Below are positions 4,180-37,000 of a stretch of 64,000 nucleotides of DNA, in pieces. Made by a program: the position numbers and the translations under genes. The notes under the pieces were generated by a model, which saw only the letters and a list, made by a program, of their open reading frames with translations, had not been told where the DNA came from and ran no database searches. The stretch comes from Nemertoderma westbladi (lineage: Eukaryota; Animalia; Xenacoelomorpha). The stretch is taken from the NCBI GenBank assembly GCA_032718475.1, contig JAUCBJ010000648.1, positions 1-64,000 on the forward strand. The letters run 5' to 3'. Each line of letters opens with the position of its first letter. Within the stretch, counting starts at the first letter, position 1.

Positions 4180-4191
4180 CATAATAACCAC
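4180..4191 (-). promoter_or_regulatory. E1 putative self-complementary primer-binding site (GTGGTTATTATG on minus strand)
   Basis: Plus 4180-4191 cataataaccac is followed by TG at 4192; its exact reverse complement gtggttattatg is at 4866-4877. Confidence 0.65.
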
Positions 4192-6252: not shown

Positions 6253-7013
6253 TGTTCAACCCACGGTGACTCATTTTTTTTCGCTTCCTCATTTTTTCCA
6301 CTTCCAAACAAACCCATAATATTAGGCTATGGCCGTTTTCTAAAAGTCTGGGGGAGGTGGTGGGGGCATAAGTGTACGGGAAACACTTCCACTGGGGGGG
6401 GGGGGGGGGGGGGTGGCAAAGCCCATATTTTCGCCATCTTTGCCAATTCCACCCCCCCCCCCCCCCCCCCCCCCCCAAAGAAAAAAATCAATTATATTTT
6501 AATAATTTTATAATTTGGGCATATATAGTGCGGTGTGGCGTAGGGGCCACCAAGAATATTAACTTACTCAAAACATTTATATGTCTTAGTGCAATTTCTA
6601 TAACTTTATTTCTTATTTAGCGGTTTATTTTATTGTTAGTAGGATAAACCATCAAGGTTAAAATGTATAAACATTAAAAATGACGTTGAAAAACGCAAAG
6701 CATGGTACACACACAAGTTGTTTTGTTCGCTAAGATGGATTGCAACTTTTGGTACATGATCCATGAAGGCCCCACTCGTGTACTTCTAACCGTAGAGACA
6801 CTACTTCTCGTTTTCTACTTCTCTCTACATTTAACTACCATTTCTTTCCCCATTTTGGACTTCACTTTATGTCATTTACCGGCTTGGCTTCCTCAGAATG
6901 CCTTCAGCCGTCTCAGAAACCCCAGTCTACAGTCTGCTGCTCACTGACACTGATCGTATGTAACTAAATATATTGTAACATAATGTAACCTTTAGTGCAT
7001 ATCTCAAACTTAC

Positions 7014-7866
7014 ATTGAACTACGATCGTAGTGGTACAGGGTTTATCCACTTCTATAGCTCTATTCCTCGCCTTACATATAAACTCTTCCCCATTATCTC
7101 CACGACTTAGATCTCTACTTATACTCAGTGTATCTTCTGGTTCAGTTACGACTCCACCAATAGCAACTCCGTTACTATACCAACTCCATCTAGAATCTCC
7201 TGATGTACTTCCAGCTACCGGTACCGGTACCCAATCCGATAACTTACAGTTTAATGTACCTGAACTGCCTTCTATATAAGTACAACTCGGTACATCGCAG
7301 CTACACTTTGGATGATTATCAGCTTTACATTGGGGTGGAAGAGTTATTATAAGTGGGTAAGTAGAGGTCTGATCGGGGAAGGCCGGGTTGTTTTGGAGAT
7401 TTTCCGTATGCGTACCGCTAGTATAATATTGTATTTGTATCTCAAATTCCTCCGGTATAGATTCAATTACAGGAGGATTCAACCCAACAGTTATATATCC
7501 TTCAGCTCCGGCTGTGTTGCTACTTATATATTCTATTGTATTCCATCCATCGCAATTGATTTTAATATTATTATTATTGTAGCAATCATCTCTATTGGCG
7601 TTGTTGACTTTATTCAGCACACGTACTATGTTATTACCTTTACCATAATTAGCAATAACCCTTGAATTTAATACATCAGTAATAGTTAATTCACTTTGTT
7701 GATTAATAATAAAATCAACTTGTACTCTAATACTATTTCTTTCTTCTTTAAATAAACATTCTCTAGTAAATTTAGATCCACCTTGTTCGACTAGTTTATA
7801 TCCATTATACTTGAACCCCAGAATAACATCAGTTAGAGTTAGTAATGTAATTATAAATAATTTCAT
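7014..7866 (-). CDS. Exon 1 of Ig-superfamily receptor paralogue A (signal peptide, N-terminal domain, Ig domain); remaining exons presumably left of the window
   Basis: MKLFIITLLTLTDVILG signal; Ig C..W..C pattern (LNCKL..WSWY..EFICKARN); phase-1 donor T/GTAAGT at 7014/7013; clear paralogue of 35991-36840. Confidence 0.8.
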
Positions 7867-8579
7867 TATAAGTATATTAAATAATTAATATCATATTTTA
7901 TATTATTATACATAGCGTATATATCTAATCACTGTCAGCGTTGTTCACTCTAAGTTCTCTATGTTAGTTTAAACATAATATTAAATTAATTGATGCACAT
8001 AATTATGAAGTTACATAATTTGCAACTTCATAGTTTTGATTTTATCGGATAGTGGAGACTTTGGGTTTTGATGACACATTGACATATAAATGTCAATTTG
8101 AAAATTAAATTTTGACAGTATGACATGTCTAAGTGTCAAAATTACTATTTTGAAATGACATTGAGACATTAATTATGACATGCCCATTTGTCAATATTTC
8201 AATTTGAAATGACATTAATTAAGACATTTCTAAATTTCATTTTGATAAAAATGACATCAGATTGTCAAATTTAAAGTCTGCCAAGTTTCTGTTTGAACGA
8301 TTGTATACAACAATGTTAGAAAACATATTAACTTTCAGATATTTTCCCTTTAGCGGCATACTGGTTAGCATCCAGTATGGTGAGCTACATACACTATGCC
8401 AAATTTTAGTTTGAACTGTTTTTGACATTATAGTATCACATGTTAAAATGTCATTTTCAGATCGTAATTTGGAAATGTCACAAAATAATTCATCAGACAA
8501 CAGGTTTTAAATCAACCAATAATATTAAGCAAAATAATATGCAGTTTTGAAACATTATTTAATTCGACTAATTTAAATG

Positions 8580-10369: not shown

Positions 10370-11370
10370 TCGACCATTAGAAACTAGTTGTTGAATAAAA
10401 AAGTTGGGAACGATTCGACGTGCGATATTCGAAATATTAGCATATTATCAACATTATACATTATGGAACGCGAAATTAAATACCCACAACTACACTTTTA
10501 CAGCTGAACAACATTTCACTACTTATTGTCAATTGGAGTTACGTACATTAATTATATCGTATTATATTGTATATCTGGGAAGTTTACAACAGCTGTCGAT
10601 TAAACTAACAAAATCCGAAAACTGAACCAGGGTGCCAGCCGGGTACCAACGGCTGTTGGGTAGACTTAATGGAAGATTTCACAAACTTTCATAGGAGGCT
10701 AGTACATGTACCTACATTATATTGTTTGCTCCGATGTTTACATTAGGCTAACTGAGAATGTATTAGGTATAAATAATTAGTGTTCTTTATTTTATTTCTC
10801 TAATACAGAAAGACCCCTCCGCAAAATGAACTACTCTTTGGGGCCGTTTCCCAGGTTGTGGATATGGATAACATTTCACACATCGCATTAATTGTGATCA
10901 TGATTTGTTTGCCTCGGTGAATGTTATATTACATTAGATGGGAGTCAGTTTTTTTGGTTGATGCAAGTCATTCTTGGTTTGCATCTTCCAATCACATCTA
11001 TTTCTTGGAGTCTGTGTAAGACAGGTTCGTTTAAAGAATTCCCCGTACTTAGTTCCAATTTAAGCCTCATGCGAATTTAGTTCCAATGGAAACGAATTTA
11101 GTTCCAATTTTGGCGAATTTAGTTCCAATTTAGGCGAACTTAGTTCCAATCCAATGGAAGCGAATTTAGTTCCAATGGAATCGAATTTAGTTCCAATGTT
11201 TCAGTTGTGGGGCGAGCCACGTAGTTGGTGAAGAATCTGTTTAATGACGCTATTAGGTGGATGGTTAAATAATAATTTTAAATAATTAACCCAAAACGCC
11301 CAACCTCTTAACCGAAACAATTCAATTTATATATTTAATAATTTAAAATGATATAATATGTATATATTAT
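10370..11370. repeat. Segmental-duplication block (intergenic), paralogous to about 39855-39943 + 41697-41910 + 42626-43350
   Basis: Near-identical sequence (ctagttgttgaataaa..gggaacgattcga..tagacttaatggaagatttcac..); the right-hand copy is interrupted by a LINE and a TTAA MITE. Confidence 0.85.
11050..11200. repeat. Left arm of a foldback-like element made of gcgaatttagttccaat subunits; inverted right arm at about 23355-23595, split by E2
   Basis: Tandem ttagttccaat units here and attggaactaa units at 23355-23595; an uninterrupted counterpart lies at about 43000-43697. Confidence 0.7.
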
Positions 11371-11453
11371 ATATAATATGTAATATGTAAAAAACAACAC
11401 CCATCATGCTCTTAACCCAAACTACGCCCATCCACCTAAACCGAAACATCTGG

Positions 11454-12652
11454 TGTTCACGCTTTTAAGACCTTTAGCAGTTTAACCTGCCAAATTTATA
11501 TGTCTTTTAGATTATAAATCGACTTTAGCCTATGACAAGTATTTGATACAATTAAACACTACATTAGCCGAAGCCAGCCTAGTGCGCGACCATTCACCCG
11601 CTGGATATACCCGGGAGACTGGATTCGGATGACTTGACCTTATTGCGTTGTAAGCCTACTGTATTATTCGATTGATCGTTAATATATAATCTCTGACAAA
11701 TATTATTCACTTTCGGGAAATATTAACAGTTCCTTTAGGACGTGGCGCTCTAATTATGTAAACAGAGTTATGACTTATACTAAACACAACGGTATGGCTT
11801 ATGATTCACGTATAAGGCGCATTCTTTAGGAGATGCTTAGTTACCAGTCACACTCATGCACACTATCGCACAATGCTGCATACCAATCTGCCGACCTTCA
11901 CTAATTTTAGTCACATATAAAGAGAACAGCAATTGACCCATGTAGTGCCTATGAAATAGCATTAGATTCACTCCAAAACCAATATAATATGAGTCGCAAT
12001 TGCTATATGTAACCTGTCTCTTACCTTCAGTATATCAAGAAGATGGGGTTTTATGATTCTTTTTCGATATTCTCCAAATATAATAATATTCCATCAACTG
12101 ATACAATTAATAACCGACAGTAAATAGCAGTAAAATAATGCGGTGAAAGGCCATAATGCATTGAGTGCACGGTGGTACCGTAAGGTACCGTACCGGTAAC
12201 AGTTATACGTTCCTGTAATCAAGCCGTTCTAATGTTTGGCTAAAGTCTGAAACACAGAATTATTCCACAGCCAATGTTGTGGCATCAGGAAAAAGGTAAA
12301 CATAAACCATAATGCATTGCGTGATTTCCCGGAGGCCCCTGCACAAAAGCAAGAGAATCGCTCTGATTGGTTGAGTGATTGCACAGAGTGGGCCTGAACA
12401 AAGAAAGTTCCACGAGTACACCAAATCAGCTGATAGATGTCGTAATCTAAACTACACTGTGTAGAGAGTATTATGGCGTATTGCGACATAGGATTGCTAG
12501 TTATGTCCGCCAAAGTACACATACAGAAAAATAGCTTTTTATGTCCACTAAAATACCGGTACAGTAAGGAAACGACTTTTATGTCCGTTAAAACATCTAA
12601 AGAGTACTTCGCTGGGAAAAAATGACTAGCCAATCCCGCAAAAGCCTTTACA
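11454..12652 (-). repeat. E2 3' LTR
   Basis: Direct repeat of 21878-23074, roughly 10 differences by eye. Confidence 0.95.
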
Positions 12653-12711: not shown

Positions 12712-14256
12712 CTAAGAATACTCTAAACAGTTAGTTTTTCTTGCGAGGACGGCGTTTACACAGTTTTTTGAGACTAGCAAGAGTCCTTTTCTCTTTGGGG
12801 CGAGCCACTTTACTAGGAGGGCTATAACTCCTGTGGGAAGGGTGCAATACAATTGCATCAGAAGGTTTAGGGTTACGACCGGTGTCTCGTCCATTTCGAT
12901 ATGCTTCTCCTCGAGCTGATTTTCCTCTGCTCGTCGTTGGATACGTTCATCCAAAAACTCTCGCAGATAATAGGGTTGTCCAAGTTCGATATCGTCCTAG
13001 AGATTCTGGATTTCCCGATCGAACTGAGATAAAGCCAATTCGTTTACCGCTTGGACTTGCTGTTACAATTTAAGTTTATCTGAACAAACGTAGGTTTCTT
13101 TTCTGATCTTTTGTAGAATAGCGTCTAAAGCGTTTCGTACAACACTCTCCTCCACCTGGGTGACGGGTTGTATCGGTGTTAAGCCTGGATGGTTGTACGG
13201 GTTAAACGGCGATATTAGAAGACCGCGTTCTAATCCGGCCAGGTAGGGTTGGCGAATATCTAGCGAGCCCACTACCGGAGTGCCGCCGATTAATTGTTCG
13301 GGTAACACAAGATCTTTAAACAGTGAGTACAGCTTGGGAGGATCCGTCATACTAATAGGATCAAGAGTCTGAGGTCTCATTAGGGAATGAGGAGGTCTGA
13401 TCGAGTATTCCAGAACTCTGATCATTGGTTTATTTAAGGATCGTCTGAGTCGAACGAGCGTAGGTGATACGTCAAACAAATTTCGCTCGAAACTCCCGTA
13501 AGTATAGCGAGAAAAACCGTGTTTAGCGCAACGTCTCCGCGGATGTTTATGTCTTTCCGTTTGTTGGTTGGGTCTAGGGCATTCATCGCAATAATACCAA
13601 AGACGCACGTCTTGTAGGGGAAACGCGAGTGATCTTTCTCCAGTTTACAATATTCCTCCATCTGTTCGAAGCTATCCGGTACAACAAGTAACGGTCGATC
13701 GGCGGTATGATACATCATAGTGGAATAGAGCCGTTTGAGTTCTACCATGCGGTCATGATGTATACCTTGAGGATATCGAGTTTCTAGATTCTGTTGACTG
13801 GTAATATTGAGATATGTTTCTCTCAAGAATTCCAGATATTTGTTGAAGTCGCTGCGTTTATCCGGCTCTTCAACATCTTACACTTTCGAGTCGGTTTCGA
13901 ATAGAATTTTCGTGTTCGAGTCTCAGTTTATCGTTCCGCTTCCGCTGGGTATGATATTTAAATAAAACCATTTTCCTTTCGGTGTCGACATCGTCCGTAT
14001 CGTGTAGGTCGATAGGATGACCAGTAGTTAAGAAGTCCATATACGTACCATTACGATTCGTATAGCGCTCGGTGAATTTTCTATAGTCCAATTCACGCGT
14101 AAGTTGCTCCTGGGACATTGGCGGTTCGATATAACGACCATCGTCCTTCGTAGTAGTTGGACCAGCGTCGCCGCGTATCAAGATATCAACAAACGCTTGT
14201 AAAGGTAGAGTATATCGCTCCCTGATACCAAGATCATCTTCTATCTACTCAGTCAT
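12712..14256 (-). pseudogene. E2 accessory ORF (about 515 aa when reconstructed), unknown function, CxxC..CxxH motif
   Basis: ORF pieces 13870-14181, 13434-13826, 13063-13608 and 12712-12954 join via two frameshifts and three in-frame stops from ATG 14256; homologous to E3 51556-52413. Confidence 0.7.
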
Positions 14257-15974: not shown

Positions 15975-18900
15975 TCAATAGTTTCCGGACAGTTTTCGGT
16001 CACTTTCCAGTAAACATAAACGACCAGCTGGGCGATTGAGTTGTTGTGTTACTTTCTCCGCTCCCTTGGCCTGTCTAATCTCCACCGTGGTAAGATGAGG
16101 AGGCCATTCTTCTTCTTCTTTACTTAGGAAGTCGGGTCCACCTAGCCAACCTGGAGTATCTATCAGTTCTTGAGGAGTTGCTCCTCTGGAAGCGATGTCG
16201 GCTGGATTAATCGTCCCAAGGCAATGTCTCCATTGATCTACATTGGAGTTAATATCGTCATTATCTGAGGAGTATGGTATTCCCTCAGTTGGATCGTCCA
16301 CCTCACTGCTCTCCACTTCCCATTTACTTACGTGGTAGACCCGTTCTTTGGGCAACCTTTCCATGAGTGTTCTATGGGACGGACCAGTAAGGTACCAACC
16401 TACTCTAGTTCTTCCCGCATAAGTTTGTAGTGGTTGCGGTTGAGCAGGCCGTTTCTCCAATGTCTCAAGCGCTTCATGCGCGTTTTGACCGATGAGTATT
16501 TGCACTCCAGGGTAATCGGTGTCGAATCTAGGTATTTCAAGCTGCTGGGTGAAATCGTCCTCATCCCAGTTATAAGGTTCCACTTGGCTGGTAGCGAAGT
16601 TCTTTATCGCCACCATCTTTACTGACCTTATACTATGTTCTCCTAGTTCATCCTGGGGGGTGGACAACGCGCCTACATAATAATCAGCTATTACGGTAGA
16701 TTTCCAAACCTGCATAATTCCTGACAAGTTTAGCTTAGTTCGGAACTTGGGTTGTCCAGCAAAGATGTCTTCGGCTAGTTCTTTGTCGATGAATGTTCCT
16801 GTGCTACCGGAGTCAAGGAAGGCGTTCACTATATAACTCCTTTTAGGTCCGTGGACCCTTAACTGTACTACAGGAAATTCTCGGATTCCTACATTGGAAG
16901 TTGGCGCTTTCCAAGATGGTTGTCGATCAGAAGTAGTTAGGGTGAGGTTGCTGTCGGGGTCTCTTTCATACTTAAGTGCTCGATACACTGCGGTATTTAT
17001 TAGGTAACAGGATTCGTCTTGGTCGGAGAATTCGTCCGTATAGAATCCTTCCATCTCAGAACTTTGGTCAGTGTTGTTCACATCACTGAATTGGACATGC
17101 AGTTCGGACTCACTTACCTTACTCGGGCTGTTTCGTTCGAATTCAGTGTGCAACAAGATATGATGTTTTGCACCGCACTTTGCACACCTTGCGTCGGAGT
17201 AACAGGTTCGCCGTTGGTGTCCTCGTCTGAGGCAATTATAACACAACCGCTTATCCCACATGACTTCACGTCTATCTTTTAATGATTTCCTCAGGAATTC
17301 ATCACACGCACTTAAACGGTGGGGCCCGTCGCACAACACACATTTGGGCTTGATGTTACTTACTTTAACCTGTGCTGTGTGGTGCACACTTGTTCTTTCC
17401 TCGGGCTTTCTTCTATGAATTCTCTTAGGAGACGTAGGAGGAGTTGTTGTTATCTGTTCTCTCCTGTCATGGGTTCGAGACTTGAATTTACTTACCTGTT
17501 CTTTAGGCGTTTTATTGACATAATAAGATCTTTCAGTGTCTTTCCCGCTGTCCTCTCCTTGAGAAGTCTGGCTTTCGCCGTCGTCGGTATAACACACTGG
17601 TATTACCTTTCTCCTAGAAACGGGTTTCTCACTTACCTTATTTTCCGGTGTCTTCTCTCTGGACTGTTTTAGGAGCTGTAATTTTACCTCTCTATCTAAG
17701 AATGACATGAGATCAGCTATGGTAGGGTCTCTTCGTTGTTGTTCCATCATATATAACACTTTCTTGTCCCAGCGTGTACCTACTCCACCCTTGGGCAAAG
17801 TAGATGCTAAGGCTCCTACAACCATAGAATTCTGGTATTCATGAGACTTACCTAACCAATCTAGTTGTCTACAGATCTCCTGAATCTCGTCGGAAAACTC
17901 TATAATCCCGCTGCTAAGAAACTTTCGGGGCGCCATTAATTTCGCATATAAATACCTAGCTATGTTAGTCCTATTACCATACCTGATGTTTAGTGTATCC
18001 CAAACTTGTCTTAATCCATCTGGATGTCCAATAAACTTTAACGCCAGTAACTTGGGAGATCCTTCCAAGCACTCGATGAGGAATCTAAGTTTCTCTCCGT
18101 TAGATAGCACAGAGTTTTGTATGTTATCTTTGTAATATTCATTAAAAGGTAACCATTTCATCTCATCTCCATTGAACTTGACGATCTCTCCCACCTTTAC
18201 CGCTTGACAGGCTTCGGTTCTAGCCATTTGACGCGTAAAACTTTCTTAGGCCATCGTGTTATTTAATATCGAGTTATCGGTATATAAATTTCTCGGATTA
18301 TGATCAGGTCTATATAGAATATCATTATCAAAAGGTTTATAATTACCCTTAATAGGGTTTACTATAGGAGTTTCCACTTCGCTAGCAGTATAGATGCGTG
18401 TAGGCTCAACACCTTGCGCATGAAATACTTCAGACCTAACAGGTTGACACATTGTTACAGGGGGTGATGGTATACCCTTTTGTATATTTACTAATTTATC
18501 GCGTTCTAACGCGATATTTTGCTGCACCTCTTGCAACTCTAACCTACTTTCCCTTACTGTTCCCTTGAACTGTTGAACAGTCTCCTGCATCTGCCCGAGC
18601 AGGAGATCCATCCCCCGCTGTCTCTCATCCACCCAATCAACCGCCGAAGCAGGATTCGCCAACGTAGTAGCAGGCGGACGAGGGGCAACGGGCGACAAAT
18701 CATTGATAATTCGCTCGGAGCCCAGGACAGGGATTGTCTCAGGTGTTGTTCTACTGGGCACAGGTAGTTTTGCGCCGTGCAAAGGGAATTTAGAAGTAGA
18801 TTCCGGGAGTACAGGTGTCTCCATCACCGAAGGGGCGGCTTTGAGAACATGCCCAATTATTTCAGGTTCATCCACTATAGTAGGGAGTCTCTCTACGGTA

Positions 18901-19688
18901 ATAATTTGGTCTGTGGGTTCTGTACTACCTAAGTCTGTGCTAGCTAATTGTCTCTTAACAGCTGGGGGCAAATCAGGCAACTTGTGACGGTGGGACATTC
19001 TTCGACGTCTGCTGAGACGAGATCTATTTCCTCCACCTTCAGTATCGGTGGTATCGCCTTCCTCAGATGATGTATATCCCTGTCTTTTGGGAGTGGATCG
19101 ACTCATCATCTGCATTTGACTAGCTGTTAGCTGTTTATTTATGTAGTCTTGCGTCTCTTGAAGATTTTCCAACTCCATTTGGGTGGTCTCTTCAGACGCT
19201 CTCCGTTCTGCTTCTGCCACTGCTTCCGCCGCTGCTACAGCCGCTTTTCTTTCCGCTTCGGCCGCTGCTTCTGCCGCCTTTCTTTCCGCTTCGGCCGCTG
19301 CTTCTGCCGCCTTTCTTTCCGCTTCGGCCGCTGCTTCTGCTGCCTTTCTTTCCGCTTTGGCCGCTGCTACTGCTGCTGTCTTTCTGTCTTCTATTCGTTT
19401 TTTCTTTACTTGTTCCTCTTGAACCTTAGTGAGGCGGATGCTTTCATCGAATCTAGCTTGGTTCGCAGCTAACATATCTACATCGATTGCGTCCAACACA
19501 AGTTTGGCTCCTTCACTATTAGGGCTAAGTCCATCCAGCCGTCTCCTCAACTCTTCGTCCCCTACAAATCATTGATAGTCTGACAGATAGATGTCAATAG
19601 CGTCTCTCGTCCGCGGTTTCTCTGCTGTCACTTCGCTTTCGGTGGTCTCTAGTAGACTGTCTGACAGGTTCTGCTTTGCGTCAGACAT
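15975..19688 (-). pseudogene. gag: E2 gag-protease ORF fused in frame to RNase H and integrase C-terminal remnants; two in-frame stops (19569-19571, 18246-18248)
   Basis: ATG 19688 is in frame with 19550 and 18227; DUF1759-like KFNGD..W..F; three Cys/His knuckles; protease FLDSGS; then WRHC..NPADIASRG..WP and RPAGRLCLLE; no YxDD or DDE core. Confidence 0.85.
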
Positions 19689-21021
19689 GTTTGTTTATAC
19701 AGTTGAATGCCTACTGCTATATTACAGCTAAAGCAAGTCTAGTAATTCAGTATCACTGTTAGCCTAGTAATTAATTACCGATACTGCTACTCAATGTAGC
19801 GTGATATATATACAATATATTAGAATACCGGTATACTTATAATATATAAGTATTATTACAGACTAGATTTGTCATAGAATACCGGTATGTAATTCCAGCA
19901 CAAATATATATAAATATATAATAGGCCTATCGCGAATACCGGTATACAGCTTACACATATAGTATATATAAGTATAATTATGGACTAGAATTAATTACAG
20001 AATACCGGTATAATTTCAGCCTAAATTTATAGAAATAAATATAATAAGCCTATTGTAAATACCGGTATGTCAATTATTTTAAATAATTGAATTTCTGAAT
20101 TTTTAGGGGTTACTTGGTTACTTTACTTACTTTATTACCGTTATTTGAGCAGTAGTCCAACTGATATTGAGACCTAATTGTTGTATCGCAGGCCTACTAT
20201 TTATAAATCGTTTGAGTTGATTTATAATATATATATACCCGTTTAATGGGTTTTGTCAATATTTGAAATAAATGTTATTATTTCTGGGGGAAGTCACTAC
20301 AAAGAAGCTGTGCGCTCTCAGTGAAGTGCTACTTGTTGGACACTAAAACAAATAATTATAATTTACCTAAGTTACTTAATACTACAAATTACGTACAATT
20401 CGGTGTGAGATTACAATCTCTAAATAAACACAAAAATTACAAGTACGAATTTTTAGGGTAATTTTACAAGAAGTCTACAAACCAGCCTAACAAAGGGTTA
20501 GAATATCTGGTTATTACAACGGACAGGGTACTACGGTATTTGAAAATAATAAAGCAGTAGTAAATATACTGCGTTGTCCAGATAGGAAAAATACCACCGT
20601 CTGACGACTTATAGCCGTATCGCTATAAGTACTACATTATGTTTCACGGAGTGTCCCTACCTAGAAGTTAATTACCACGGTCTACCAGAACCAACGTGCC
20701 TATTAACCACTTTACAACACAAATATACTGCCTACGCACTAATTACCTTCGGAAAGCACTGTACACTAAACCCTAGATTAGGTACAAGTACTTGTACAAC
20801 AAATAATCAGTAGTAGTTAAAAATACTTGAACAGCTAAAAGAACCACGGTATCTGCTGGAGTGACCAAAGCACAAAATCTCCAGTCTTTACCTACGCCGA
20901 GCAGCCCTGATGTAGTACCGGGGTTAATTTAACTATAACGGTATGTATAACAAGCACAATTACTGTAGGAATAAACTTGGGTTTATGAATGTTGCGAATA
21001 ATCGCATAAACTCTGAATAAT

Positions 21022-21594
21022 AAATATTACGCTACGCGTACAGACTACTCAAACAAAATGCAGATCAAATACTGACAGACTACTATCAAGCCTAAACAAA
21101 CTACGGTATATGCAGACTCCGAAATGGTTAGTTAGTATGCGTTCTAACCGAGTAGTACGACTTATTCTTTCGAGGGGGTTTACCTCACAACACTGGAAGC
21201 CCCTACGTTCCTAACCGGCACTTTATCGGACATACACTCTACACACACCACAATCTCTTCAGACCTAACAACAGCCAGACAGCAATCCAGCCTACAAATT
21301 ATCTAAATAAGAAATATTACGCTACCCGTACAGACTACACAAACAAAATACAAACCAAACGCTGGCAGACCACTATCAAGCCTAAACAAACTACAGTATA
21401 TGCAGACTCCGAAATGGTTAGTTAGTATGCGTTCTAACCGAGTAGTACGACTTATTCTTTCGAGGGGGTTTACCTCACAGCACTGGAAGCCCCTACATTC
21501 ATAACCGGCACTTTATCGGACATACACTCTACACACACCGCAATCCGTTCAGGCCTAACAACAGTCAGACAACAGTCCAGCCTACAAATTATCT
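21022..21594. repeat. 290-bp tandem duplication in the E2 5' leader
   Basis: aaatattacgctac..cctacaaattatct occurs at 21022 and 21312. Confidence 0.9.
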
Positions 21595-21865
21595 GTACAA
21601 TCTGAGCAGGCTTACACGTCTTCTGCTCAATATTAGCCTACAATTAAATAAAACTGACAGAAATAAATAAGCTCCAAAAGAAACAAGGGGTGTACAGTCC
21701 CTAATTTCTTAAGCAGCCTACCACTATACAATATCACAATCGAAATAATACTGATGTACGGTACCTGTACTGTATGTACCGGTTCCGGTGGTTAGGTAGT
21801 TAGGTCTACAGGTTACCGGTTGACCGGTACTTCTCTCTTTATTGCCTACGCCGCAATAAAAAAGC

Positions 21866-21877
21866 TATAACTGTTAC
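21866..21877 (-). promoter_or_regulatory. E2 self-complementary primer-binding site (GTAACAGTTATA on minus strand)
   Basis: Abuts the 5' LTR end at 21878; no TGG; plus tataactgttac is the reverse complement of LTR segment 22618-22629. Confidence 0.8.
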
Positions 21878-23074
21878 TGTTCGCGCTTTTAAGACCTTTA
21901 GCAGTTTAACCTGCCAAATTTATATGTCTTTTAGATTATAAATCGACTTTAGCCTATGACAAGTATTTGATACAAATAAACACTACATTAGCCGAAGCCA
22001 GCCTAGTGCGCGACCATTCACCCGCTGGATATACCCGGGAAAGGATTCGGATGACTTGACCTTATTGCGTTGTAAGCCTACTGTATTATTCGATTGATCG
22101 TTAATATATAATCTCTGACAAATATTATTCACTTTCGGGAAATATTAACAGTTCCTTTAGGACGTGGCGCTCTAATTATGTAAACAGAGTTATGACTTAT
22201 ACTAAACACAACGGTATGGCTTATGATTCACGTATAAGGCGCATTCTTTAGGAGATGCTTAGTTACCAGTCACACTCATGCACACTATCGCACAATGCTG
22301 CATACCAATCTGCCGACCTTCACTAATTTTAGTCACATATAAAGAGAACAGCAATTGACCCATGTAGTGCCTATGAAATAGCATTAGATTCACTCCAAAA
22401 CCAATATAATATGAGTCGCAATTGCTATATGTAACCTGTCTCTTACCTTCAGTATATCAAGAAGATGGGGTTTTATGATTCTTTCTCGATATTCTCCAAA
22501 TATAATAATATTCCATCAACTGATACAATTAATAACCGACAGTAAATAGCAGTAAAATAATGCGGTGAAAGGCCATAATGCATTGAGTGCACGGTGGTAC
22601 CGTAAGGTACCGTACCGGTAACAGTTATACGTTCCTGTAATCAAGCCGTTCTAATGTTTGGCTAAAGTCTGAAACACAGAATTATTCCACAGCCGATGTT
22701 GTGGCATCAGGAAAAAGGTAAACATAAACCATAATGCTTTGCGCGATTTCCCGGAGGCCCCTGCACAAAAGCAAGAGAATCGCTCTGATTGGTTGAGTGA
22801 TTGCACAGAGTGGGCCTGAACAAAGAAAGTTCCACGAGTACACCAAATCAGCTGATAGATGTCGTAATCTAAACTACACTGTGTAGAGAGTATTATGGCG
22901 TATTGCGACATAGGATTGCTAGTTATGTCCGCCAAAGTACACATACATAAAAATAGCTTTTTATGTCCACTAAAATACCGGTACAGTAAGGAAACGACTT
23001 TTATGTCCGTTAAAACATCTAAAGAGTACTTCGCGGGGAAAAAATGACTAGCCAATCCCGCAAAAGCCTTTACA
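21878..23074 (-). repeat. E2 5' LTR
   Basis: Direct repeat of 11454-12652; followed by TSD TCTGG. Confidence 0.95.
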
Positions 23075-24219
23075 TCTGGTAAATATTGTATTTGGTGTAA
23101 AAATGGCACAATGTGCATGACTTGAGTATATAATACTACAGACTCAGTCAGTCAGTATCAGTATACTCATGATTAATATATATTATTTCAAAGTGTGTAA
23201 TTATACATTTAATTCATTAATAATAATTCGTTTTTTAAAAATGACAGAAGGATTTTACAATTTATTACAATTATTGTTGACCCTGACCCACCCTGAATAG
23301 TGGCAATACGCAATAGGGTTCGCCTACTACGTGGCTATATCACCGCGATTGAAACATTGGAACTAAATTCGCTTCCATTGGAACTAAATTCGCTTCCATT
23401 GGAACTAAATTCGCATGCATTGGAGCTAAATTCGCATCCATTGGAACTAAGTTCGTTTTGATATTCTGGGATTGGAACTAAGTTCGCCTCGATTGGAACT
23501 AAGTTCGCTTTGTAAAATTTATTTTGGAACTAAATTCGTTTCAATTGGAACTAAGTTCGCATTTGAAAATGTGCGATTGGAACTAAGTTCGTGCTGCCCA
23601 CGTGGCGATCACGTGACGTTTAAAGACATATCGATGGCGTTCTATTAATAACATACAAAAATTAATGCTTTGCTGTTAAAAAGCTTTCTCACCAACAACC
23701 ACGCAAATATATGTTGGTTGAATTCTGGAGTACATTTTACTTTTGTTATTAAATTTCAATGGTCTGGTTGTGCGATCAAAAGTGGATGGATACCATGGTT
23801 AAATTTGCACTGAAATGTAAACATATTTTATTTAAGTGCCAAAGTAGTCAGTACAGCAGTAGACCCATTACAAATTCAATAAAAATGTTTTAATGTTATA
23901 AACATGTTATAACAAAATATATTAATCAAAATTCAAAAAAAATCTATATAAACAGTAAACACGGATACTATAATATATTGTTATATATGAACTTTTGTTT
24001 GCCAAGTTTTATTTTAAATTCTGGGGCCAAATGTAACTTCCTCTTTGGCATCAATGGCAGGGAAATAGTAACAATATGGTAGATTTATGTTGAGTCCCCG
24101 ATTGGGGAAAATCCCTAATATTCTACAACTTCGGCGATTTGAAAGAAATAATGAGAGAGAAAATATGTTACAAAATAATAATTTTCAAATAAAAAAGATA
24201 CCAAATATAATACAAATAA

Positions 24220-25457
24220 GGATAGTAATATTTACTGACAGTTGTTACCCGTTATTAACAGTTATCCAATTTTTGCACAGACTATCCAACAGTTATCCAA
24301 TTATTGCACAGGCTATCCAACAGTTATCCAATCTTTGCACAGGCTATCCAACAGTTATCCAATCTTTGCACAGGCTATCCAACAGTTATCCAATCTTTGC
24401 ACAGGCTATCCAACAGTTATCCAATTTTTGCACAGGCTATCCAACAGTTATCCAATTTTTGCAGAGGCTATCCAACAGTTATCCAATCTTTGCACAGGCT
24501 ATCCAACAGTTATCCAATCTTTGCACAGGCTATCCAACAGTTATCCAATCTTTGCACAGGCTATCCAACAGTTATCCAATCTTTGCACAGGCTATCCAAC
24601 AGTTATCCAATTTTTGCAGAGGCTATCCAACAATTATCGAAAATGTATTTAAAAAGGCAAAGGTCTCACGGCTGTCTGGGATTTCAAGCATTTCAATTTA
24701 TTAAGAGCAGGTCTCCTTGAAATAATTTTATAGTTGTACCAGTACCATATACTATAACTAAACTGAGATCAGGATAGCATCCTTTGTTATAGTATTGTCT
24801 TTATGGGCTGAACGATTTTTAATTAATTAGGCCTAATTAATCCTCATCATTTAAGAAATTAATCCCGCCTTCCAGTAGTTAGTGGCGTTGTTCTTTCGAA
24901 GCTCTACAGTTCACTGAGCGACTGGACTGGATCTTTTCTCTTGGCTCATCTAGTCATCCCCAATAATACACCGATTGTCATGGCGAGTAACAACCATCTC
25001 CATTGTTGTACCAAATTCACAACAGTGACTGGGATGAGGTAGGCCTATGGAGAGGGGACGACGGACATCGGTATGTCGGGAAACATTGACGGAGGATGGG
25101 GACGAACGAACGACTTTCATCACTCAATACTTTCGATATACGCCAATGTTCTTTGTTACACAGGCAACAATGTTAGGAAGCGCCAACAGGCACGCATTTG
25201 ATTCTACGTCGTCAGAAGGAAATCCGAAGACAAGACGGAAACCATTCCAGGGTTCGGTTCCAGTATAATCGGTCAGCCCATAAATACAATACTGGTACTA
25301 TAACAAAGGCTGCATATCCTGATATCAGTACGTGGTACTGGTACAAAACTTTTTTCGCCATTTTAAATTCATATTCGATAACTGTTGGATAGCCAGTGCA
25401 AAGATTGGATAACTGTTAATAACCACCGGTAACAACTGTCAGTAAATATTACTATCC
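24220..25457. mobile_element. Non-autonomous DNA transposon (PIF/Harbinger-like MITE) containing a 31-bp minisatellite (about 24258-24630)
   Basis: TIR ggatagtaatatttactgacagttgttacc / ggtaacaactgtcagtaaatattactatcc, TAA on both flanks; about 12 copies of tatccaacagttatccaatctttgcacaggc. A paralogous copy starts at 45801 and is the E3 target. Confidence 0.8.
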
Positions 25458-25642: not shown

Positions 25643-26565
25643 CTAGATTCCATAGACTTCCTTAGCATTTAAATAGTCCAGATTGTCCTCATTCAATGCG
25701 GATTGGTTGATTATTCCAGCTCCGGTAACTTCTGATTGGTTGACATATATTGGGGATACTGACTTACTCATGCATGCACGGCTATCTGATTGGTTGTTCA
25801 TTGAGGCTTCCGCTACTTGTGATTGGTTCACATAAACTCTTCCCACCATTGTGTTGCTATTCTCTTGTCCTTTCTCCTCCACTGTGTTGCTATTCTCTTG
25901 TCCTCTCCCCACCACTACTGTGTTGTTATTCTCTTGTCCTCTCTCCTCCACTGTGTTACTATTATCTCGCCCTCTCTCATCCACTGTGTTGCTATTCTCT
26001 GGCCCTCTCCCCTCCCCTGTGTTGGTACTCTCCACAGTGTTGGAGTTCCGGCAATTTGTATCAGTAATATGTCTTTCTGTAGTTACCTTGTTTCTACCAA
26101 CTTTAGATTCATCGATAGTATCATAGGGATGCTCTTCACTTATTATCTGATCATCTCGACTACTGGAGGTGAGCGGAGTAAGATTGACAGGTGACCGATT
26201 GGTTGATGGGTGATTTATAGCTCTCTCATTGGCTGTTTTATTTATAGTTATCCCATTGGATGGTGGATTTAGATAGGTCTCATTGGCTGGGTGATTACGA
26301 AAACTCTCAGTGGCTAATGACCGATTGTTTGAAGCTCGAATGACTTGTATCTCTAATTCTTCATAGGGGTGACTCGGGATGCTAGCTGGACCATCCAGCC
26401 CATATACAACTGTGTCATCGTAGACAGGACTACGAGGTTTTCTATTCCGATATCTTTTGAGTAAAATGATTGCCAATACGACTATAACAATCACTGCAAA
26501 TCCACCTCCAACCACCCCACCTATCAGCGGTATAGTAGGATCATAATTGTCTACAATTTGTTGAC
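25643..26565 (-). CDS. Receptor copy B exon 4: transmembrane helix and Tyr-motif-rich cytoplasmic tail
   Basis: Acceptor cttccag/G at 26565; TM IGGVVGGGFAVIVIVVLAIILL then KRYRNRK; motifs VYGL, PYEEL, PYDTI, YVNQ x2, EVYGI-stop. Confidence 0.85.
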
Positions 26566-26719
26566 CTGGAAGATTGAATAAGAAATTTTATATATTTATA
26601 TCAAACAAACGTCCGCAACCGTCACCTACAAACTGAAGTAACAATCGCAGTTATTCTGTTTATATTTCTAGGTTCGTTTAATTATATTTATTTTATTATT
26701 AAATTTAATTGCAGCCGTG

Positions 26720-26975
26720 GAAATGTAATATAACATCGACATCATCTGTATCCAAGAACTTCGGATTAGTCATGAAGACAGTGCCATGAAGTATAATGAC
26801 ATTGGAAATGGTTGGACATTAGTAACAACCTCAGGAGAAAGAAATTCGGCCAATGTTTCAATTGGTAGAGTAGGAATTCGGCTAAGCCCATTTGCACTTT
26901 AGACACTAAACAACATCGAATCTATAATTTCCAGGGTCATTCATGATTGCAACATTAGATTGGAATTCCAAGACA
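26720..26975 (+). mobile_element. Intronic fragment of an RTE-like LINE endonuclease, same family as 8580-9790
   Basis: NIDIICIQE motif; DNA matches the reverse complement of about 9690-9775. Confidence 0.7.
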
Positions 26976-27479
26976 CTGCATGTTGAAATTTTGTTTTGAA
27001 CCTCTGAGTTGGGTTAAAGTACCGGTACGCCTAGAGAGAGACCTACAGAAAGATGAAATACTTTGTTTCCATTTGGTAATAAGATTTCAGTCGATCTTTT
27101 GACGAGAAGCAAATTGAGCCAAATTAAAAAAGAAGTTATTCTAATTTTATATGCTATACAATATATAGTTAATATTATAGTAATATATATAAATAGATAT
27201 AATAAATATAATAAAATATATGTATAGTAAAAATTACAGAAATAGCATTTTAGATTCAGCCTATATTATAGTATCCCAACCAAATACGTTATAATATAGA
27301 CTTCTAATTCTGGCGTTCAATTCACACCATATTATATCTATCTATAATGGTTGGAAACAATTTGAGCCACCACCATGCAGCAATCTACAATAATTAAATT
27401 GCTATAAAGCAGCGTGCTTTAAGAATGCTGTGGCGGTTTATCAACAAAACCGCGCCGCCAAAACTTCCTATCCCCCGCT

Positions 27480-27660
27480 CAAAATAGTCGAACCTCTAGA
27501 ATTCCAATGAATTCTATTTGACTTCAAAATCCTGGCGATCCCATTCAACGCTGCCTATGCCTCCCCTACGAATTAGAAAGCACCTGACTTCCGGACCCAT
27601 GATCCCAGGTAGCAGAAGTTATTCACATGCTTAAGTATACCATCCTTTGAGCTTATGCTT
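27480..27660 (-). mobile_element. Short LINE RT C-terminal remnant
   Basis: Minus strand reads LKHVNNFCYLGSW (FxYLGS motif). Confidence 0.55.
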
Positions 27661-28011
27661 TATACGTTCAGACATTATCTGGAGACTGTCGAAGTGTTCA
27701 CACCATGGATCAGTTTTGTTACAGTTCAACATTAATCTCTCTCAAATGACACGGTTTCAGTAACAGACCAGACAGGTTATTCTATATTTATAAGAGTAAC
27801 ATGATAAAATAAAGTAATAGTAACGCATTTTAAGCAACCATGTTCAGCATGATCCGGTCTCTTGAATATAATCTTAAGTTGAACGAAATACATTTTTGAC
27901 AGACCAATCAATATCAAGCAAATTAAATAATATATGTTTTTTTTTTATATTATGCAAAAAAAAATATCATGGATCATTGTTCAACCCAAGATTGTATAAA
28001 AGTTAACATAC

Positions 28012-28638
28012 CTGATGCTGGTTCACCTTCTATTACAGGAGTTGGATCCTGACAACCGATCTTATTACAGGCCACCACCGAGAAATAATGACGTTCATTG
28101 GGTAATTCTGGGACGATTATGTATGAATCATTTGTAATTCCTGTTGTTTTAGAATCAATTTTTTGGTTACTATTGGTGTACTCAACTCTAAACCATTGAT
28201 TAGATCCACCATTGAATCCTGGTGTCCAACTAACTTTTACACTAGAAGAGTCAACAGCTTCTACTTTAACTCCAGTCGGCATATGTGGAGGTCCTATAGG
28301 TTCCAACCTAACGTCACATTCAACCTCAGTATTACTGCTAGGGATACCATTTCCAACCCTCCCAAAGTAGGTTAAATTAAGATCATCACTGGTTACATTA
28401 TATATAGTTAGCCTTAAAACAGCTGTACTTTTATACTCAGAGTTCTCCACTACAACTGATGTTCTGTATTTATCACCATCGGGCAGCTTTTCATTAACGT
28501 CATTTTGACTAACCCAATAGACACTCGATTCAATAACAGCTGGATAACTTTCCATTGTACATGTTAGGTTAACCTCCTTTCCAAAAACTCCTATAACAGT
28601 TCGCTCTGTTGTGTCATTGTGAATCCAATGTGGTTTGT
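28012..28638 (-). CDS. Receptor copy B exon 3: Ig domain plus fibronectin type III domain
   Basis: Acceptor ttctttag and donor G/GTATGT, phase 1; NLTC..SYPA..YW; GPPHMPTGV..VSWTPGFNGGSNQWF..Y..VVACNKIG (nephrin-type FN3 signature). Confidence 0.88.
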
Positions 28639-29164
28639 CTAAAGAAAAAAATGTGTTTGTATTGTAATTATATTTATTATGTGGGAAATGTGAATTCAAT
28701 GCAACCACTACACCAAGGTGGAACCTTGGAATCAGAGTCGGGAAGTTATCAATAGTCCAAACACGACTGAAAGATGAAATGGTAAATTATAACATTGCGA
28801 GCTTCGAGCTTGATATTTTATCTAGACACGTTGCAATCAAGCAGCAAAATCTTAAAGTAGCCAGATTCTGGAATAGTTACTGTGTTACTGGTCGTATTGA
28901 TGTAGATTATATCATTAATATGATTTATAAATAATGACCTGAAGTTCGTATTGTTTGTTTTGTTTGTATTGAATTCTTATACATGCCTGGTCTGGGTTGT
29001 GTAGTTCAGTTCACCGTCTCAAAGTTGCACAAAACATTAAGTTTTAACAAAACGAGACGGGGGTTGGGTAACTTACGCCAATCCCATCAATGAAAATTGA
29101 AAATTAAATAAAAAAATGAAAATTGTAAATATATTGTGTGGAAGCGTTGACATGGAATTATATA

Positions 29165-29489
29165 GGGTAATATTTACAGTAGTTTATTGTTACTTACACT
29201 GAACTATTAACTCAATAGTGAATGACTCCAGTTCTACTAACAGTGATGGAGGGTAATATTTACAGTAGTTTATTGTTACTTACACTGAACTATTAACTCA
29301 ATACTGAATGACTCCTGTTCTACTAACAGTGATGGAGGGTAATATTTACAGTAGTTTATTGTTACTTACACTGAACTATTAACTCAATAGTGAATGACTC
29401 CTGTTCTACTAACAGTGATGGAGGGTAATATTTACAGTAGTTTAATGTTACTTACACTGAACTATTAACTCAATATTGAATGACTCCGT
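29165..29489. repeat. 86-bp tandem repeat duplicating the exon 2 3' end and splice donor (three extra copies in the intron)
   Basis: gggtaatatttacagtag..cttacactgaactattaactcaata at 29165, 29251, 29337 and 29423. Confidence 0.9.
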
Positions 29490-30058
29490 AATAGTTGATG
29501 AATCATAAAACGTATATTCGGCTGTAGTTGTGTAAATCCCTGAAGATCTTTTATTTATATCGATATTCCTAACTTCATCTCCACCGGTTACGAAGTCGCC
29601 ACTCCAATTATAATCAACACCTATATTGCATCCATCTCCATCTGGAATCCACTTTACCTCTATTGGGTCGTTATGAACTTCTAAACTTCTATTTAATTGT
29701 ATTGAATCACCTCCATTATAAGAAGTACCAGAAACTTTCAGTTCCAGATCACAATATTCTACAGTTACCGGTACCGCTGGGCTTTCTTTTCTCCCTTCCC
29801 CACCGTTGCTGTAACTACCGGTAAACTCGCACTTATAATCACCTCCATCGTCTGCGCGTAAAGGGTCTAGTGTAAATGTTGATGAATATGGTTCAGTAAC
29901 TATAGCTGCATCACCAGTAACATCTTTAGTACCATCAACATACCAGGACCAAGATGGATTCACATTGTAATCGTCTGCCGAACATTTTAATTCCAATGTT
30001 TCGCCTTTTTTCTTTTTAATCGCATCGTTGGGGTTAATGTTTATCCAAGACGGCAAAT
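29456..30058 (-). CDS. Receptor copy B exon 2: two Ig-like domains
   Basis: Acceptor gttccag and donor T/GTAAGT, 603 bp, phase 1; LELKCSA..WSWY..DDGGDYKC; second domain YNW..SGIYT. Confidence 0.88.
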
Positions 30059-33000
30059 CTGGAACAATAAAATTAATATTAATAATAATAATATAACTTA
30101 GATGTAAAACTTTCAGATTCATAACAATGTAATGTTAATTGTTATATATTGTAATGGCGAGTTTTTTAAACGCCAATGTTGGCCAATGCTTGGAACTAGT
30201 TTAGTGGAAACAAATGCAATTTTAGCTGACAGATTGCCTCGATTGTCGACTACGGCCGTTTCCGTAATTGCATATCGGTTTACATTTTTAACAAGAACCT
30301 TGCAGTGGTTGGTGGTGATCCGTAATATTTAAAATCAGTGAAAATCATAATTGTTTTTTATTCACGTTTTGTAATATTAACCCTATTTGGCCCATTTTAA
30401 AATTTTTTTGTAGGTAGGTTTTTTGTAATTCATCTGTATCTTTGAGTCAGGTTTGTTGGCAAAATTGTAATTTATGAGCCAAGATCTAAAACATTTCTTT
30501 AATGACCCCCCCCCCCCCCCCCCCTGGGCTAATTACGTTGTTAAATAGACCGTGCCAGATAGAGTTAAACCAATTGAATAACGTTTCCAATGAAATTATA
30601 TGTCTGTATGTTTAGTACGTTTGTGGAGTTTAAATGATAATGGTATTAACGTGAATGTCACTAATTTCGATCACAAAACAGCTATTCTTGAATTTAATAA
30701 TACAGTATCATTATTATTGTGATCATACTGTATACGTACCAATGTAGTAGGCCCCTATAGTATGTACTTCACAAGATTGCCTTTGAATCAAAACCACGTG
30801 CATTTAGCAGGAAACTACCTGTTTATGTAGAACCAAGGCCATCATCGTTATATGCAGTGGAGGTGGGGTGTGCCTAGGTTAAAATCTGCATTAAATAAGT
30901 TACATAAAAACCCAGACTTCCTAGTCCAATTAAGGGGGGTGTGGGGGGGGGGGGGGGTACCCACAAATAGCCACTTATTTTTAAATGGCCATTACTTTGG
31001 GTTATAACTTAATATAACAATTTTATCGTCGCTAGCATGAAATATGTGAATTTTTATGTATGTAAATTTTTGGAATAAAAATTCAATTATATTTTATATT
31101 AAAGTTTTGGCCTCCCCCTAGCAGCTGGCGGAAAAATGAGAATTTAACTAAATACACTAACTAGTCCCTCAATCTTGGTCCAAATTTCTTGAAATCAACT
31201 TTTTTGGAATCAGCACGATCAACTCTACAAAATGTATCTATAAATAGTATAGAATGTATAGAATTTTTAATTAGCTAATTTAAAAAATATTATTAATTTA
31301 ATTAATTGCTATTAAAGTTTGAACATTACCGCGCAAAATCTCTCTGTTAATATGTAAGAATGTCTGTCATTTATATCTAGCAACAAAAAAGCACAAAACC
31401 ATACTAAGATTTTTGCCATGGGGGTTTTCCTGGCTGTCTGTCTGTCGGTCTATCTGACAATCCGACAATCTGTTAGTCAAATATAAGGAAAGGTCATAAA
31501 ATCTAGCTTAAATTTAGTTATAAGGGTTTTCCTCGCTGAATTCATTTCGAGTGTCAGTTTTAACATGTCAAATGTCTGTTTGGCTGTCAAGCTGTCGGTT
31601 ATGTTTTGACGTTCAGACTGACAGGCATACAGACAGAAACGACGATGCCAAATTTAAATAATGACATCACAAATTACGTCATCGACTCCGAAAACCCAAA
31701 ACCGGCATTTTTTAGACAGATATGCTTTTTATTGACGGACAGAAATACTGACGGACAGACCGTCAGTCAAACGGACAGACAGCCATAGCTCAATAAGTAT
31801 GATAGATATTGCTAAACGGTTTTTAAATTTGGAATCTAGATAAAAAACTGCTCCAGATTAAATAATAAAAACAATTAAAAAAAAATTTGTAAGGGTGGGG
31901 GTAAGTATCATATTTGCCACCCAAAGTAGTAAACCATATAGGCAACCTGATAATTCACATATACATGAAATAGCAATTTTAAAGCAAAAAGAGGCAACTT
32001 TTGACGCAATTTGAAAAATAACCCAACAAATCTCGTGATAGACGGCAAAACAAGCAGTGAGCTTTCCAGTTGAGAAGGTTGTCGATGATGAGGCCAAGGT
32101 ATCTTACATTATCACAATGGTCAAGCATGGAGTCTTTGATTATAACTTTGGGTAAAGGTGGAATATTGCGAGGATTGTTAGAATAGATACAGTAAACTAA
32201 CGAGAGGCGATTCGAATCAAACCATTCAGAAAGATCTTCTAGTTCAATGTTAACAATATTTACAAGGTGAGTTTATGAGTGGTGTAAGCTAAACAAGTTA
32301 GTTTCGTCGGTGAAGTGTAGAGTTTTCAGATATGTTGCAAGAGGGAGGTCGTTAATGTACGGGATGAAAAGTGTCAAGGGTGGGACCTTGGGTGATATGT
32401 TATGCTTAATAGTCTAACTTTAAGAAAATAGGCCTATAAGTAATACTGTAGATACCAAATAATTATATATGGTGGTACTGTAGTCTTTGGTGTTTCAATC
32501 TATGGTTTTTGGTATACAGATATATAAAGTTGTTAAAGTTAGAATTAATTCCGAAATTGTAAATCAGTTTACATTTTTAGCATCACATTGCTGTGGTATT
32601 TGATATCCAATATTTGTTTACATATTGGTAGTATTGGTAGTGATGAGTATTTCAACTTTGTTTGGTTTATAATGATAATGTTATAAACCACATTAAAGTA
32701 TTACCGTAAAATTTTGGTATATAATACAGTAGTACCCCTAGTAGGAAATCTACATTCTATTAGGATTTCAGATACATAATTTCTGTTGTTCAATTTGACA
32801 TTAGTGTAAATCATGATTTTGAGTATTGTAATATTAAACTACTGTAATTGAATACGTCTCCCAAGTAATCAAATTTCTGTCTGTATGTTTAGAATGTTTC
32901 TGTAGTTTAGCTGAAATTGGTATTAACTTGAATGTCAGCAAATTCGATAAAGAATCAGCTTTTCTTGAATTTAATAATAGGGATAGCTTTGATTAACGTG

Positions 33001-35236: not shown

Positions 35237-35990
35237 GTTCCTTTGTCTGCCGCTAGAGGGCGAATTGACAGAAACGTAGAAGTACTGTAGCTGTACTTAT
35301 AGAACTAACCATCAGATTCATCTGAAATTTGTTAGGAGTGACCTATGAGCATTGCTTAAGTAGAAATTATACACAAAGACAGATTGAAATAAACGTAGAA
35401 GTAGCTGTACTTATAGAACTAACCATCAGATTCATTTGAAATTTGTTAGGAGTGACCTACAGGGTATGAGCATTGCTGAATAAGAAATAATTCTAAATAA
35501 GTACAGACTTCTACAGTTCCTCTGTCTGCCGCTACGGGGCGAATTCGCAGAAACATAATAGTAGCTATAATAGAACCAATCAGATTCAACTGAAAGTTGG
35601 AGTAGTGACCTACGATAATTGCTTAAATAGAACTGGTAGAGACAAGCTAACGAAGTAGTATACCAAATTTCGAGTACTCGGATTACATCTTTCTCGGGTT
35701 AACCTAGGTTAACCGAGTCTCGTGCTGCGCGAAGGCCCCACGAACGTGTATCCAATGGAATCACTTGAAACGTTAACCATAATGGCCGTGGAGTCTCTCT
35801 ACATTTAATACCCTTTCTTTCCCCATTTTGGACTTCACTCTTTGTCATTTACCGGCTTGGCTTCCTCCCTCAGAATGCCTCCAGCCGTCTCAGAAACCCA
35901 AGTCTACAGTCTGATGCTAACTGTGACTGATCGTATGTAACTAAATATATTGTAACATAATGTAACCTTTAGTGGATATCTCAAACTTAC

Positions 35991-36840
35991 ATTCAACTAC
36001 GATCGTAGTGGTACAGGATTTATCATCTTCTATAGCTCTATTCCTCGCCTTACATATAAACTCTGACCCATTATCTCCACGACTTAGATCTTTATTTATC
36101 CTCAGTGTATCTCCTGGTTCAGTTACGACTCCACCAATAGGAACTCCGATACTATCGTTACTATACCAACTCCATCTAGAATCTCCTGATGTACTTCCAG
36201 CTACCGGTGCCGGTACCCAATCCGATAACTTACAGTTTAATGTAGCTGAACTGCCTTCTATATAAGTACAACTCGGTAAGCAGCTACACTTTGGTTTAGT
36301 ATCAGCTTTACATTGGGTAAGAGGTATTATAAGTGGGTAAGTAGTCTGATCGGATATGGCCGGGTTGATTTGGAGTTCCACTACTCTATTCTCTTTAATC
36401 CAATATTTTATATTTATCTCAAATTCCTCCGGTATAGATTCAATAACAGGAGGATTCAACCCAACAGTTATATATCCTTCAGCTCCGGCTGTGTTGCTAC
36501 TTATATATTCTGTTGTATTCCATCTAACGCAAGGGATTTTAGTTTTATTGATGTTACAAACATCTCCGTTGGAGTTCGCTACATTATTCACACGTATGCT
36601 GTTACTATTATCATCCGTAGCAGTAACAGATAATTCCATTACATCGGAAATAGTTTCCGTTATTAATTCGCTAACCTCTTCAATAACAAAATCAACTTTT
36701 ACTCTAATACTATTTCTTTCTTCTTTAAATAAACATTCTCTAGTAAATTTAGATCCATCTGGTTCAACTAGTTTATATCCATTATACTTGAACCCCAAAA
36801 TAACATCAGTTAGTATCAGTAATATCAGTAATGATTTCAT
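35991..36840 (-). CDS. Receptor copy B exon 1: signal peptide, N-terminal domain, Ig domain (the four exons total 3003 nt = 1000 aa)
   Basis: MKSLLILLILTDVILG signal; donor T/GTAAGT; all four exons splice in frame via GT-AG phase-1 introns. Confidence 0.88.
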
Positions 36841-37000
36841 TGTTATTGGGGCAAAGTTTGTTGTTGAATTATAACAACTTATGTTTAAAATTGTGTCGGC
36901 ATTACAAAATTTATAGATTGAGTGCCGTTTTTAATCAATACAAAATATAAAATTATATATAAAAGATATTTAAATTATAAACTCAAACTCTATAATCCAC

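Follow-up and report, generated by a model that had tools for sequence, protein, structure and literature searches.

The locus described here raises the question of how a BEL/Pao retrotransposon starts reverse transcription when the nucleotides next to its 5' LTR mirror a segment of that same LTR. According to ICTV, the Belpaoviridae possess an 18-nt primer-binding site (PBS) for the 3' end of a host tRNA and are primed by tRNA-Arg or tRNA-Gly (PMC8742986). Three elements, E1, E2 and E3, are located on the minus strand of the window, that is, the whole 64-kb (64,000-nt) stretch of DNA analysed. Judging from sequence comparison, it is highly probable that these elements and their relatives prime reverse transcription with RNA derived from their own LTRs and not with tRNA, similarly to Tf1.

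As the sequence-only reading had claimed, the LTR limits of E2 are fixed independently by its two LTR copies and by the target-site duplication TCTGG (11449-11453 and 23075-23079). Two-copy alignment delimits a 5' LTR of 1197 nt (21878-23074, TG...CA) and a 3' LTR at 11454-12652, which differ in 11 of 1199 columns (99.1% identity). The 12-nt PBS (21866-21877, sense GTAACAGTTATA) adjoins the 5' LTR, and direct inspection confirmed the further claims of that reading: the PBS is devoid of TGG, forms (read 21877-21866) a perfect complement of 22629-22618 inside the LTR, and its pairing ends at the LTR terminal CA. This predicted self-primer (22618-22629) is located 445 nt into the LTR and 740 nt upstream of the LTR end, and an identical copy occurs in the 3' LTR at 12196-12207. 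The gag (DUF1759, zinc knuckles) and protease region at 15975-19568 contains one in-frame stop; the protease is followed by a post-RNase H remnant, while RT, RNase H and integrase are lost, so E2 is non-autonomous. The 99.1% identity of its LTRs and the intact target-site duplication, retained despite this loss, suggest that E2 was recently mobilised in trans; since it has no RT, its primer would be made by the enzyme of a helper element.

Two other pairings were considered for E2 and rejected: a second 10-nt inverted match near the PBS (21859-21868 with 22953-22962), which has no splice sites and was attributed to low-complexity chance, and a spliced partner of equal length, which was dropped for its non-consensus donor. 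The long 5' leader of E2 also carries two 290-nt tandem copies, 92% identical, at 21012-21591, and broken extra reading frames, to which no family was assigned, are situated upstream of the 3' LTR (12715-14244).

The earlier reading had also attributed the same geometry, with different sequences, to E3 (11 nt) and E1 (12 nt); this holds for both, with the qualification that the LTR end of E1 is defined by the match alone. In E3, the 5' LTR (62644-64000, at least 1357 nt) runs off the window edge, and two copies establish its 3' end (62644 and 45850); the portion of the 3' LTR aligned to the 5' copy (45850-47206, covering the matched part only) shows 7 differences in 1357 positions. The 11-nt PBS (62633-62643, read 62643-62633) complements 63674-63664, a predicted self-primer located 1020 nt upstream of the LTR end. 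Together with the preceding TCA, this PBS is present in three copies within a 38-bp tandem (62557-62643; copies two and three at 62595-62605 and 62557-62567). An incomplete fourth copy, located in a small hairpin, comes next, and the array might have been left by slippage or by the primer having been copied several times. In E1, the putative 12-nt PBS (4180-4191, read 4191-4180) follows a CA, holds TGG one base in, and complements the predicted self-primer at 4877-4866. Since only one E1 LTR lies in the window, its end is deduced from the pairing itself; both limits of the putative 5' LTR (4192-5500) are predicted, the second copy being outside the window. Direct reading confirmed that all three PBSs begin with GT and that all three partners read Y-ATA...AC, as had been proposed.

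The elements are BEL/Pao by their coding domains. E3 carries the full domain set in order: gag-pol at 53047-61806, interrupted by stops and frameshifts, encodes Gag (DUF1759 with zinc knuckles), protease, RT, the Pao-type Peptidase_A17/RNase H region, integrase and DUF5641. DUF1759 is present in E2 and in E1 too, where gag (DUF1759, zinc knuckle; 3-3425) runs off the window. Paired TG...CA LTRs with a target-site duplication are seen in full in E2, at the 3' ends only in E3, and as one LTR only in E1. The elements depart from the family's listed trait of an 18-nt tRNA-Arg or tRNA-Gly site (PMC8742986), TGG being absent in E2 and E3 and its status ambiguous in E1. Against BEL/Pao proteins from molluscs, corals, hemichordates, a crustacean and Schistosoma, the E3 RT shows 40-50% identity, and these nearest relatives suggest a Sinbad/Sailor-like lineage, as far as the cited parts of PMC554778, PMC6238403 and PMC8556966 characterise it. 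Like the Sinbad/Sailor-like elements of aquatic animals, those of the window share gene order, domains, TG...CA LTRs and a 5-bp target-site duplication. The same domains and nearest relatives place them outside the Tf1/Sushi group, which has a Ty3/gypsy chromovirus Pol. E3 also contains extra 3' reading frames (48692-52533), for which Pfam and PDB searches returned nothing useful. In a 500-aa frame among them, residues 1-270 score 0.87 to 3'-5' exonuclease (PF01612) clusters of the ESM Atlas and are followed by zinc knuckles, a likeness which we treat as a lead only.

How often such complementarity would arise by chance was estimated with LTRs simulated by an order-1 Markov model. An exact match at offset 0 was obtained in 7 (E2), 9 (E3) and 2 (E1) of 20,000 simulations; with offsets of 0-6 nt allowed, the numbers rose to 29, 47 and 52. 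E1, E2 and E3 have no mutual blastn match and only 26-41% identity in their longest gag alignments, and therefore represent three independent cases. Each PBS/partner motif is absent from the rest of the window beyond the LTR and PBS copies of its own element.

The comparison was extended to relatives retrieved by RT alignment, for which we took the best 80 of at least 505 confirmed metagenome loci, drawn from 25 of 64 parts of the metagenome data; the viral contigs searched contained none. Together with E3, these loci formed 57 clusters at 85% RT identity, from which 39 relative families with a readable LTR and PBS were obtained, one representative each. The 17 uncounted clusters comprise three with an acceptor-side match only, their donor being off the contig or missing (L001-4, L068, L079), four without a settled match (L035, L036, L045 and L072, the last with a donor-like site at the contig end that is inconsistent with its PBS) and ten without an LTR or PBS; we also dropped the degraded L054, which belongs to the cluster of L033, and the repeat of L053, which is another element. 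In 16 families (14 relatives, E2 and E3), hereafter the boundary-fixed set, the LTR end was set by two copies and the PBS was not scanned for. For the other 25 (held-out) families we found the PBS with the help of scans and visual inspection; some of these scans demanded a GT or AT start and some favoured consensus splice sites.

In the boundary-fixed relatives, the sequence after the LTR seldom starts with TGG, and its uninterrupted matches to the LTR are mostly short. The clue came from these same LTRs, where a GTAAG donor, a pyrimidine tract and an AG acceptor right before the short matches were found; the intron pattern was thus noticed on the boundary-fixed set before being tested. When any GT...AG segment may be removed from the LTR, 15 of the 16 boundary-fixed families reach 10-15 nt of complementarity, 12 of them only across an intron and three contiguously. 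Among the controls for this set, none of 15 host flanks following the 3' LTR had a match of 10 nt (maximum 8), and 10 of 240 cross pairs had one.

A uniform rerun on the full set gave a match of 10-16 nt to the family's own LTR in 41 of 42 families (38 of 39 relatives plus E1-E3), 32 of which are spliced and nine contiguous (six relatives and E1-E3). Control matches reaching 10 nt occurred in 105 of 1722 cross-family pairs and in 28 of 840 shuffled PBSs; 28 of the 105 cross-family matches use the partner family's own junction, mostly between kin with a shared primer. The 41 paired PBSs comprise 34 distinct 10-mers, each matching its own LTR, which represents covariation across families. The proposal of self-priming in this BEL/Pao lineage, made originally from the three window elements, is therefore supported: PBS and LTR partner change together, and the loss of complementarity in related elements, named in advance as evidence against the proposal, was not seen, 38 of the 39 readable relatives retaining at least 10 nt. 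We conclude that the complementarity is genuine and holds generally in this lineage.

In 32 of the 38 matching relative families, the partner exists only after a GT-AG intron is removed from the LTR. The junctions were picked by complementarity in a search requiring only GT and AG; nevertheless, the donors are GTRAG in 28 of 32, compared with 54 of the 1444 GT sites that these LTRs contain, and the acceptors are YAG (CAG or TAG) in all 32, with 8-14 pyrimidines in 15. The introns are 66-426 nt long, and 4-10 paired bases precede the donor and 3-8 follow the acceptor; unspliced, the same 32 families show a longest match of only 5-9 nt. The L020 element, compared with its RT-cluster kin L018 and L022, is devoid of exactly their predicted 168-nt intron (L020:6915-7206 versus L018:6830-7379), and it may represent either spliced RNA or an intron-lost DNA copy. 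No acceptor AG was found in any of the E1-E3 partners, and the distance from partner to LTR end is 674-1020 nt in these elements versus 23-360 nt in the relatives. In a tree that places 283-aa RT pieces alongside proteins of Schistosoma, molluscs and corals, the contiguous forms fall on several separate branches amid intron-type families; since this tree is midpoint-rooted and the RT alignment is short, we can only infer the direction of the intron change.

These data indicate that the primer is likely to be built by splicing in most families, with the window's elements being putative intron-less forms. In a broader scenario, which we consider fairly probable, a large animal BEL/Pao lineage would build its RT primer via the host spliceosome, a first exon of 4-10 nt being joined to the next one and a capped piece of about 11 nt then being released by a cut to serve as the primer; splicing would then license replication, the intron-bearing LTR would be the common state, and the intron-less type of E1-E3 would have arisen repeatedly from spliced 3' LTR copies. 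Transcription would begin at the partner or just upstream of it, and in the intron-type families the spliceosome would join the 4-10 nt upstream piece to the 3-8 nt past the acceptor. The resulting RNA 5' end of about 11 nt could fold onto the PBS and be cut at the duplex edge, in the conserved A-Y|S context, probably by RT/RNase H as in Tf1, after which RT would start from the released 3' end and proceed through U5 and R. The primer would later be copied during plus-strand synthesis and the PBS thereby regenerated, which would automatically keep PBS and primer matched. This copying back is the simplest account of how a PBS in DNA may mirror an exon-exon junction that is absent from DNA. Since the intron is situated upstream of the predicted cut, progeny LTRs would inherit it from the unspliced 3' LTR, and splicing of the 3' LTR copy would yield intron-less LTRs like those of E1-E3.

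Several features of the pairing are those expected of a primer. Pairing spans 10-12 nt in 34 of 41 families, with a sharp peak at 11 nt, and the PBS starts 0-6 nt after the LTR end. At the end of pairing, the partner carries A at position -2 in 40 of 41 families and C at position -1 in 37, with C or G directly after the paired segment in 37, although in the held-out families this conservation was partly selected because some scans required a GT or AT start. In the boundary-fixed set, the paired ends are AC in 12, AT in two and CT in one of 15, and the context of E2, AC|CG, is the commonest. The 5' limit of pairing coincides with a pyrimidine-purine step in 31 of 41 families (background 0.48, p=0.0003), the other ten being without such a step, and AT content peaks 21-30 nt upstream of the partner (0.68). 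The length peak, the pyrimidine-purine limit and the AT peak suggest, indirectly, that the partner may be the 5' end of the RNA, namely its first 10-11 nt.

The primer might, alternatively, be LTR-derived without being the 5'-terminal 11 nt, if it were the 3' end of a longer 5' fragment with its start further upstream, or were supplied in trans, either by another copy of the genome or by a short transcript of the LTR. We regard this as rather unlikely. A TATA-like box at -31 is found in only two of 41 families, and in three such boxes are located at -95 to -138; L020 joins upstream LTR sequence to the spliced junction; and the loop in E1-E3 measures 674-1020 nt, all of which speak for a longer or separate primer. 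The peak of pairing length at 11 nt, the pyrimidine-purine limit and the position of the AT peak speak against it. Predicted folding bears on the same question: when RNA is folded from the partner onward, the helix has a probability of 0.98-1.0 in E1-E3 and exceeds 0.5 in 28 of 32 spliced leaders (at most 0.5 in the other four) versus 6 of 32 unspliced ones, which is weak evidence because pairing is generally to be expected of a perfect 11-mer. Including a further 150 nt of LTR upstream lowers the probability to 0.21 in E2 and 0.0 in E3 and leaves it at 0.99 in E1. The fold therefore depends on the assumed RNA start, and the loss of the helix in E2 and E3 counts against an extended primer. Such a primer would in any case alter the source of the priming RNA and not its identity, and it overlaps with self-priming.

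It is improbable that the helix is a regulatory or packaging structure masking the PBS and that a host RNA (a tRNA half, an internal tRNA fragment or another small RNA) is the true primer. This explanation would agree with the described tRNA priming of BEL/Pao (PMC8742986) and with the half-tRNA priming that exists in Copia lineages, according to the cited part of PMC6317226. It is also favoured by E1 and L047, the two exceptions among 41 matched cases in which TGG occurs within the first 9 nt; with TGG near the LTR end these two are the most open to tRNA priming, and L047 also has a weak donor. The only failing family, L043, has a tRNA-type TGG PBS after a 5-nt spacer (L043:56-80) and a short LTR of 194 nt, and in the RT tree it is placed, with weak support, among the self-complementary families. 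Against a host primer stand the absence of TGG from the first 9 nt in 39 of 41 cases and the diversity of the PBSs, 34 different 10-mers in 41 families. The distance of the helix from the LTR end (0-6 nt) and its conserved 3' end are as required of a primer, and a PBS that tracks an exon-exon junction would be explained simply by RNA copied back. Within the 64-kb window, no tRNA or Rfam RNA was detected.

Chance, or a functionless inverted duplication of DNA, is hardly conceivable: matches of 10 nt do turn up under the permissive junction search, in 6% of the cross-family pairs and 3% of the shuffled PBSs, and the LTR end of E1 was derived from its match, but own pairs succeed in 41 of 42 families, which refutes chance at the family level, consensus splice sites emerge unrequested, the intron of L020 is absent exactly, and a DNA inversion cannot copy a junction existing only after splicing.

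Self-priming with LTR-derived RNA, as we propose it for E1-E3 and their relatives, is closest to that of Tf1, whose first 11 bases pair with the PBS and are separated by an RNase H cut between bases 11 and 12 (PMC7175516); about half of Tf1 cDNA retains a PBS copied from the primer (PMC11042837). The cited parts of the literature name Tf1/Sushi, Tcn1 and the Copia TAR lineage as self-priming (PMC6317226, PMC6934838, PMC3601003). Tf1/Tf2 of Schizosaccharomyces pombe and the Tf1/Sushi and Tcn1 chromoviruses share with E1-E3 the absence of a tRNA site and a PBS of about 11 nt by the 5' LTR that complements their own LTR RNA, as described in the cited parts of PMC7175516 and PMC6317226. The elements studied here differ from the Tf1 group (Ty3/gypsy) in belonging to another superfamily, with DUF1759, Peptidase_A17 and DUF5641, and in the PBS offset of 0-6 nt and the loop of 0.7-1 kb in the window; cleavage, demonstrated for Tf1, is presumed here. 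The primer is split by an intron in most of the BEL/Pao relatives, whereas the cited parts of the Tf1 papers describe no such intron. The TAR lineage of plant Ty1/copia (Houba, Osr-1) is similar in that self-priming outside gypsy was predicted from sequence; it differs in being a Copia lineage of plants, and the cited part of PMC6317226 mentions no LTR intron for it.

In the BEL/Pao surveys PMC3118150, PMC554778, PMC6238403 and PMC8556966, words for PBS or tRNA are absent from the main text. No description of self-priming or of a spliced primer in BEL/Pao was found in the openly accessible literature searched. Provisionally, we consider both self-priming in a superfamily described as tRNA-primed and the splice-built primer to be new. 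If the proposed self-priming is true, the textbook tRNA priming of BEL/Pao fails for what is perhaps the dominant lineage in aquatic animals, and self-priming is found in all three LTR superfamilies. With a splice-built primer, retroelement replication would be tied to host splicing in a new way, and the failure of DNA-level searches to find a primer for these elements would be explained. The very short first exons that it predicts would bear on the recognition of cap-proximal splice sites, and tRNA-fragment defences targeting the PBS may be suggested to miss these elements.

Finally, the window contains duplicated host exons with Ig and fibronectin type III domains on the minus strand (6820-7867 and 35794-36841; 25643-30134), which appear to form a tandem cluster of receptor genes where all three elements were inserted in the same orientation. 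An AT-rich minisatellite of 15/17-nt units with an inverted block occupies 36970-39550, and short tandem arrays occur at 24164-24721, 10665-11321, 23261-23600 and 42625-43700.
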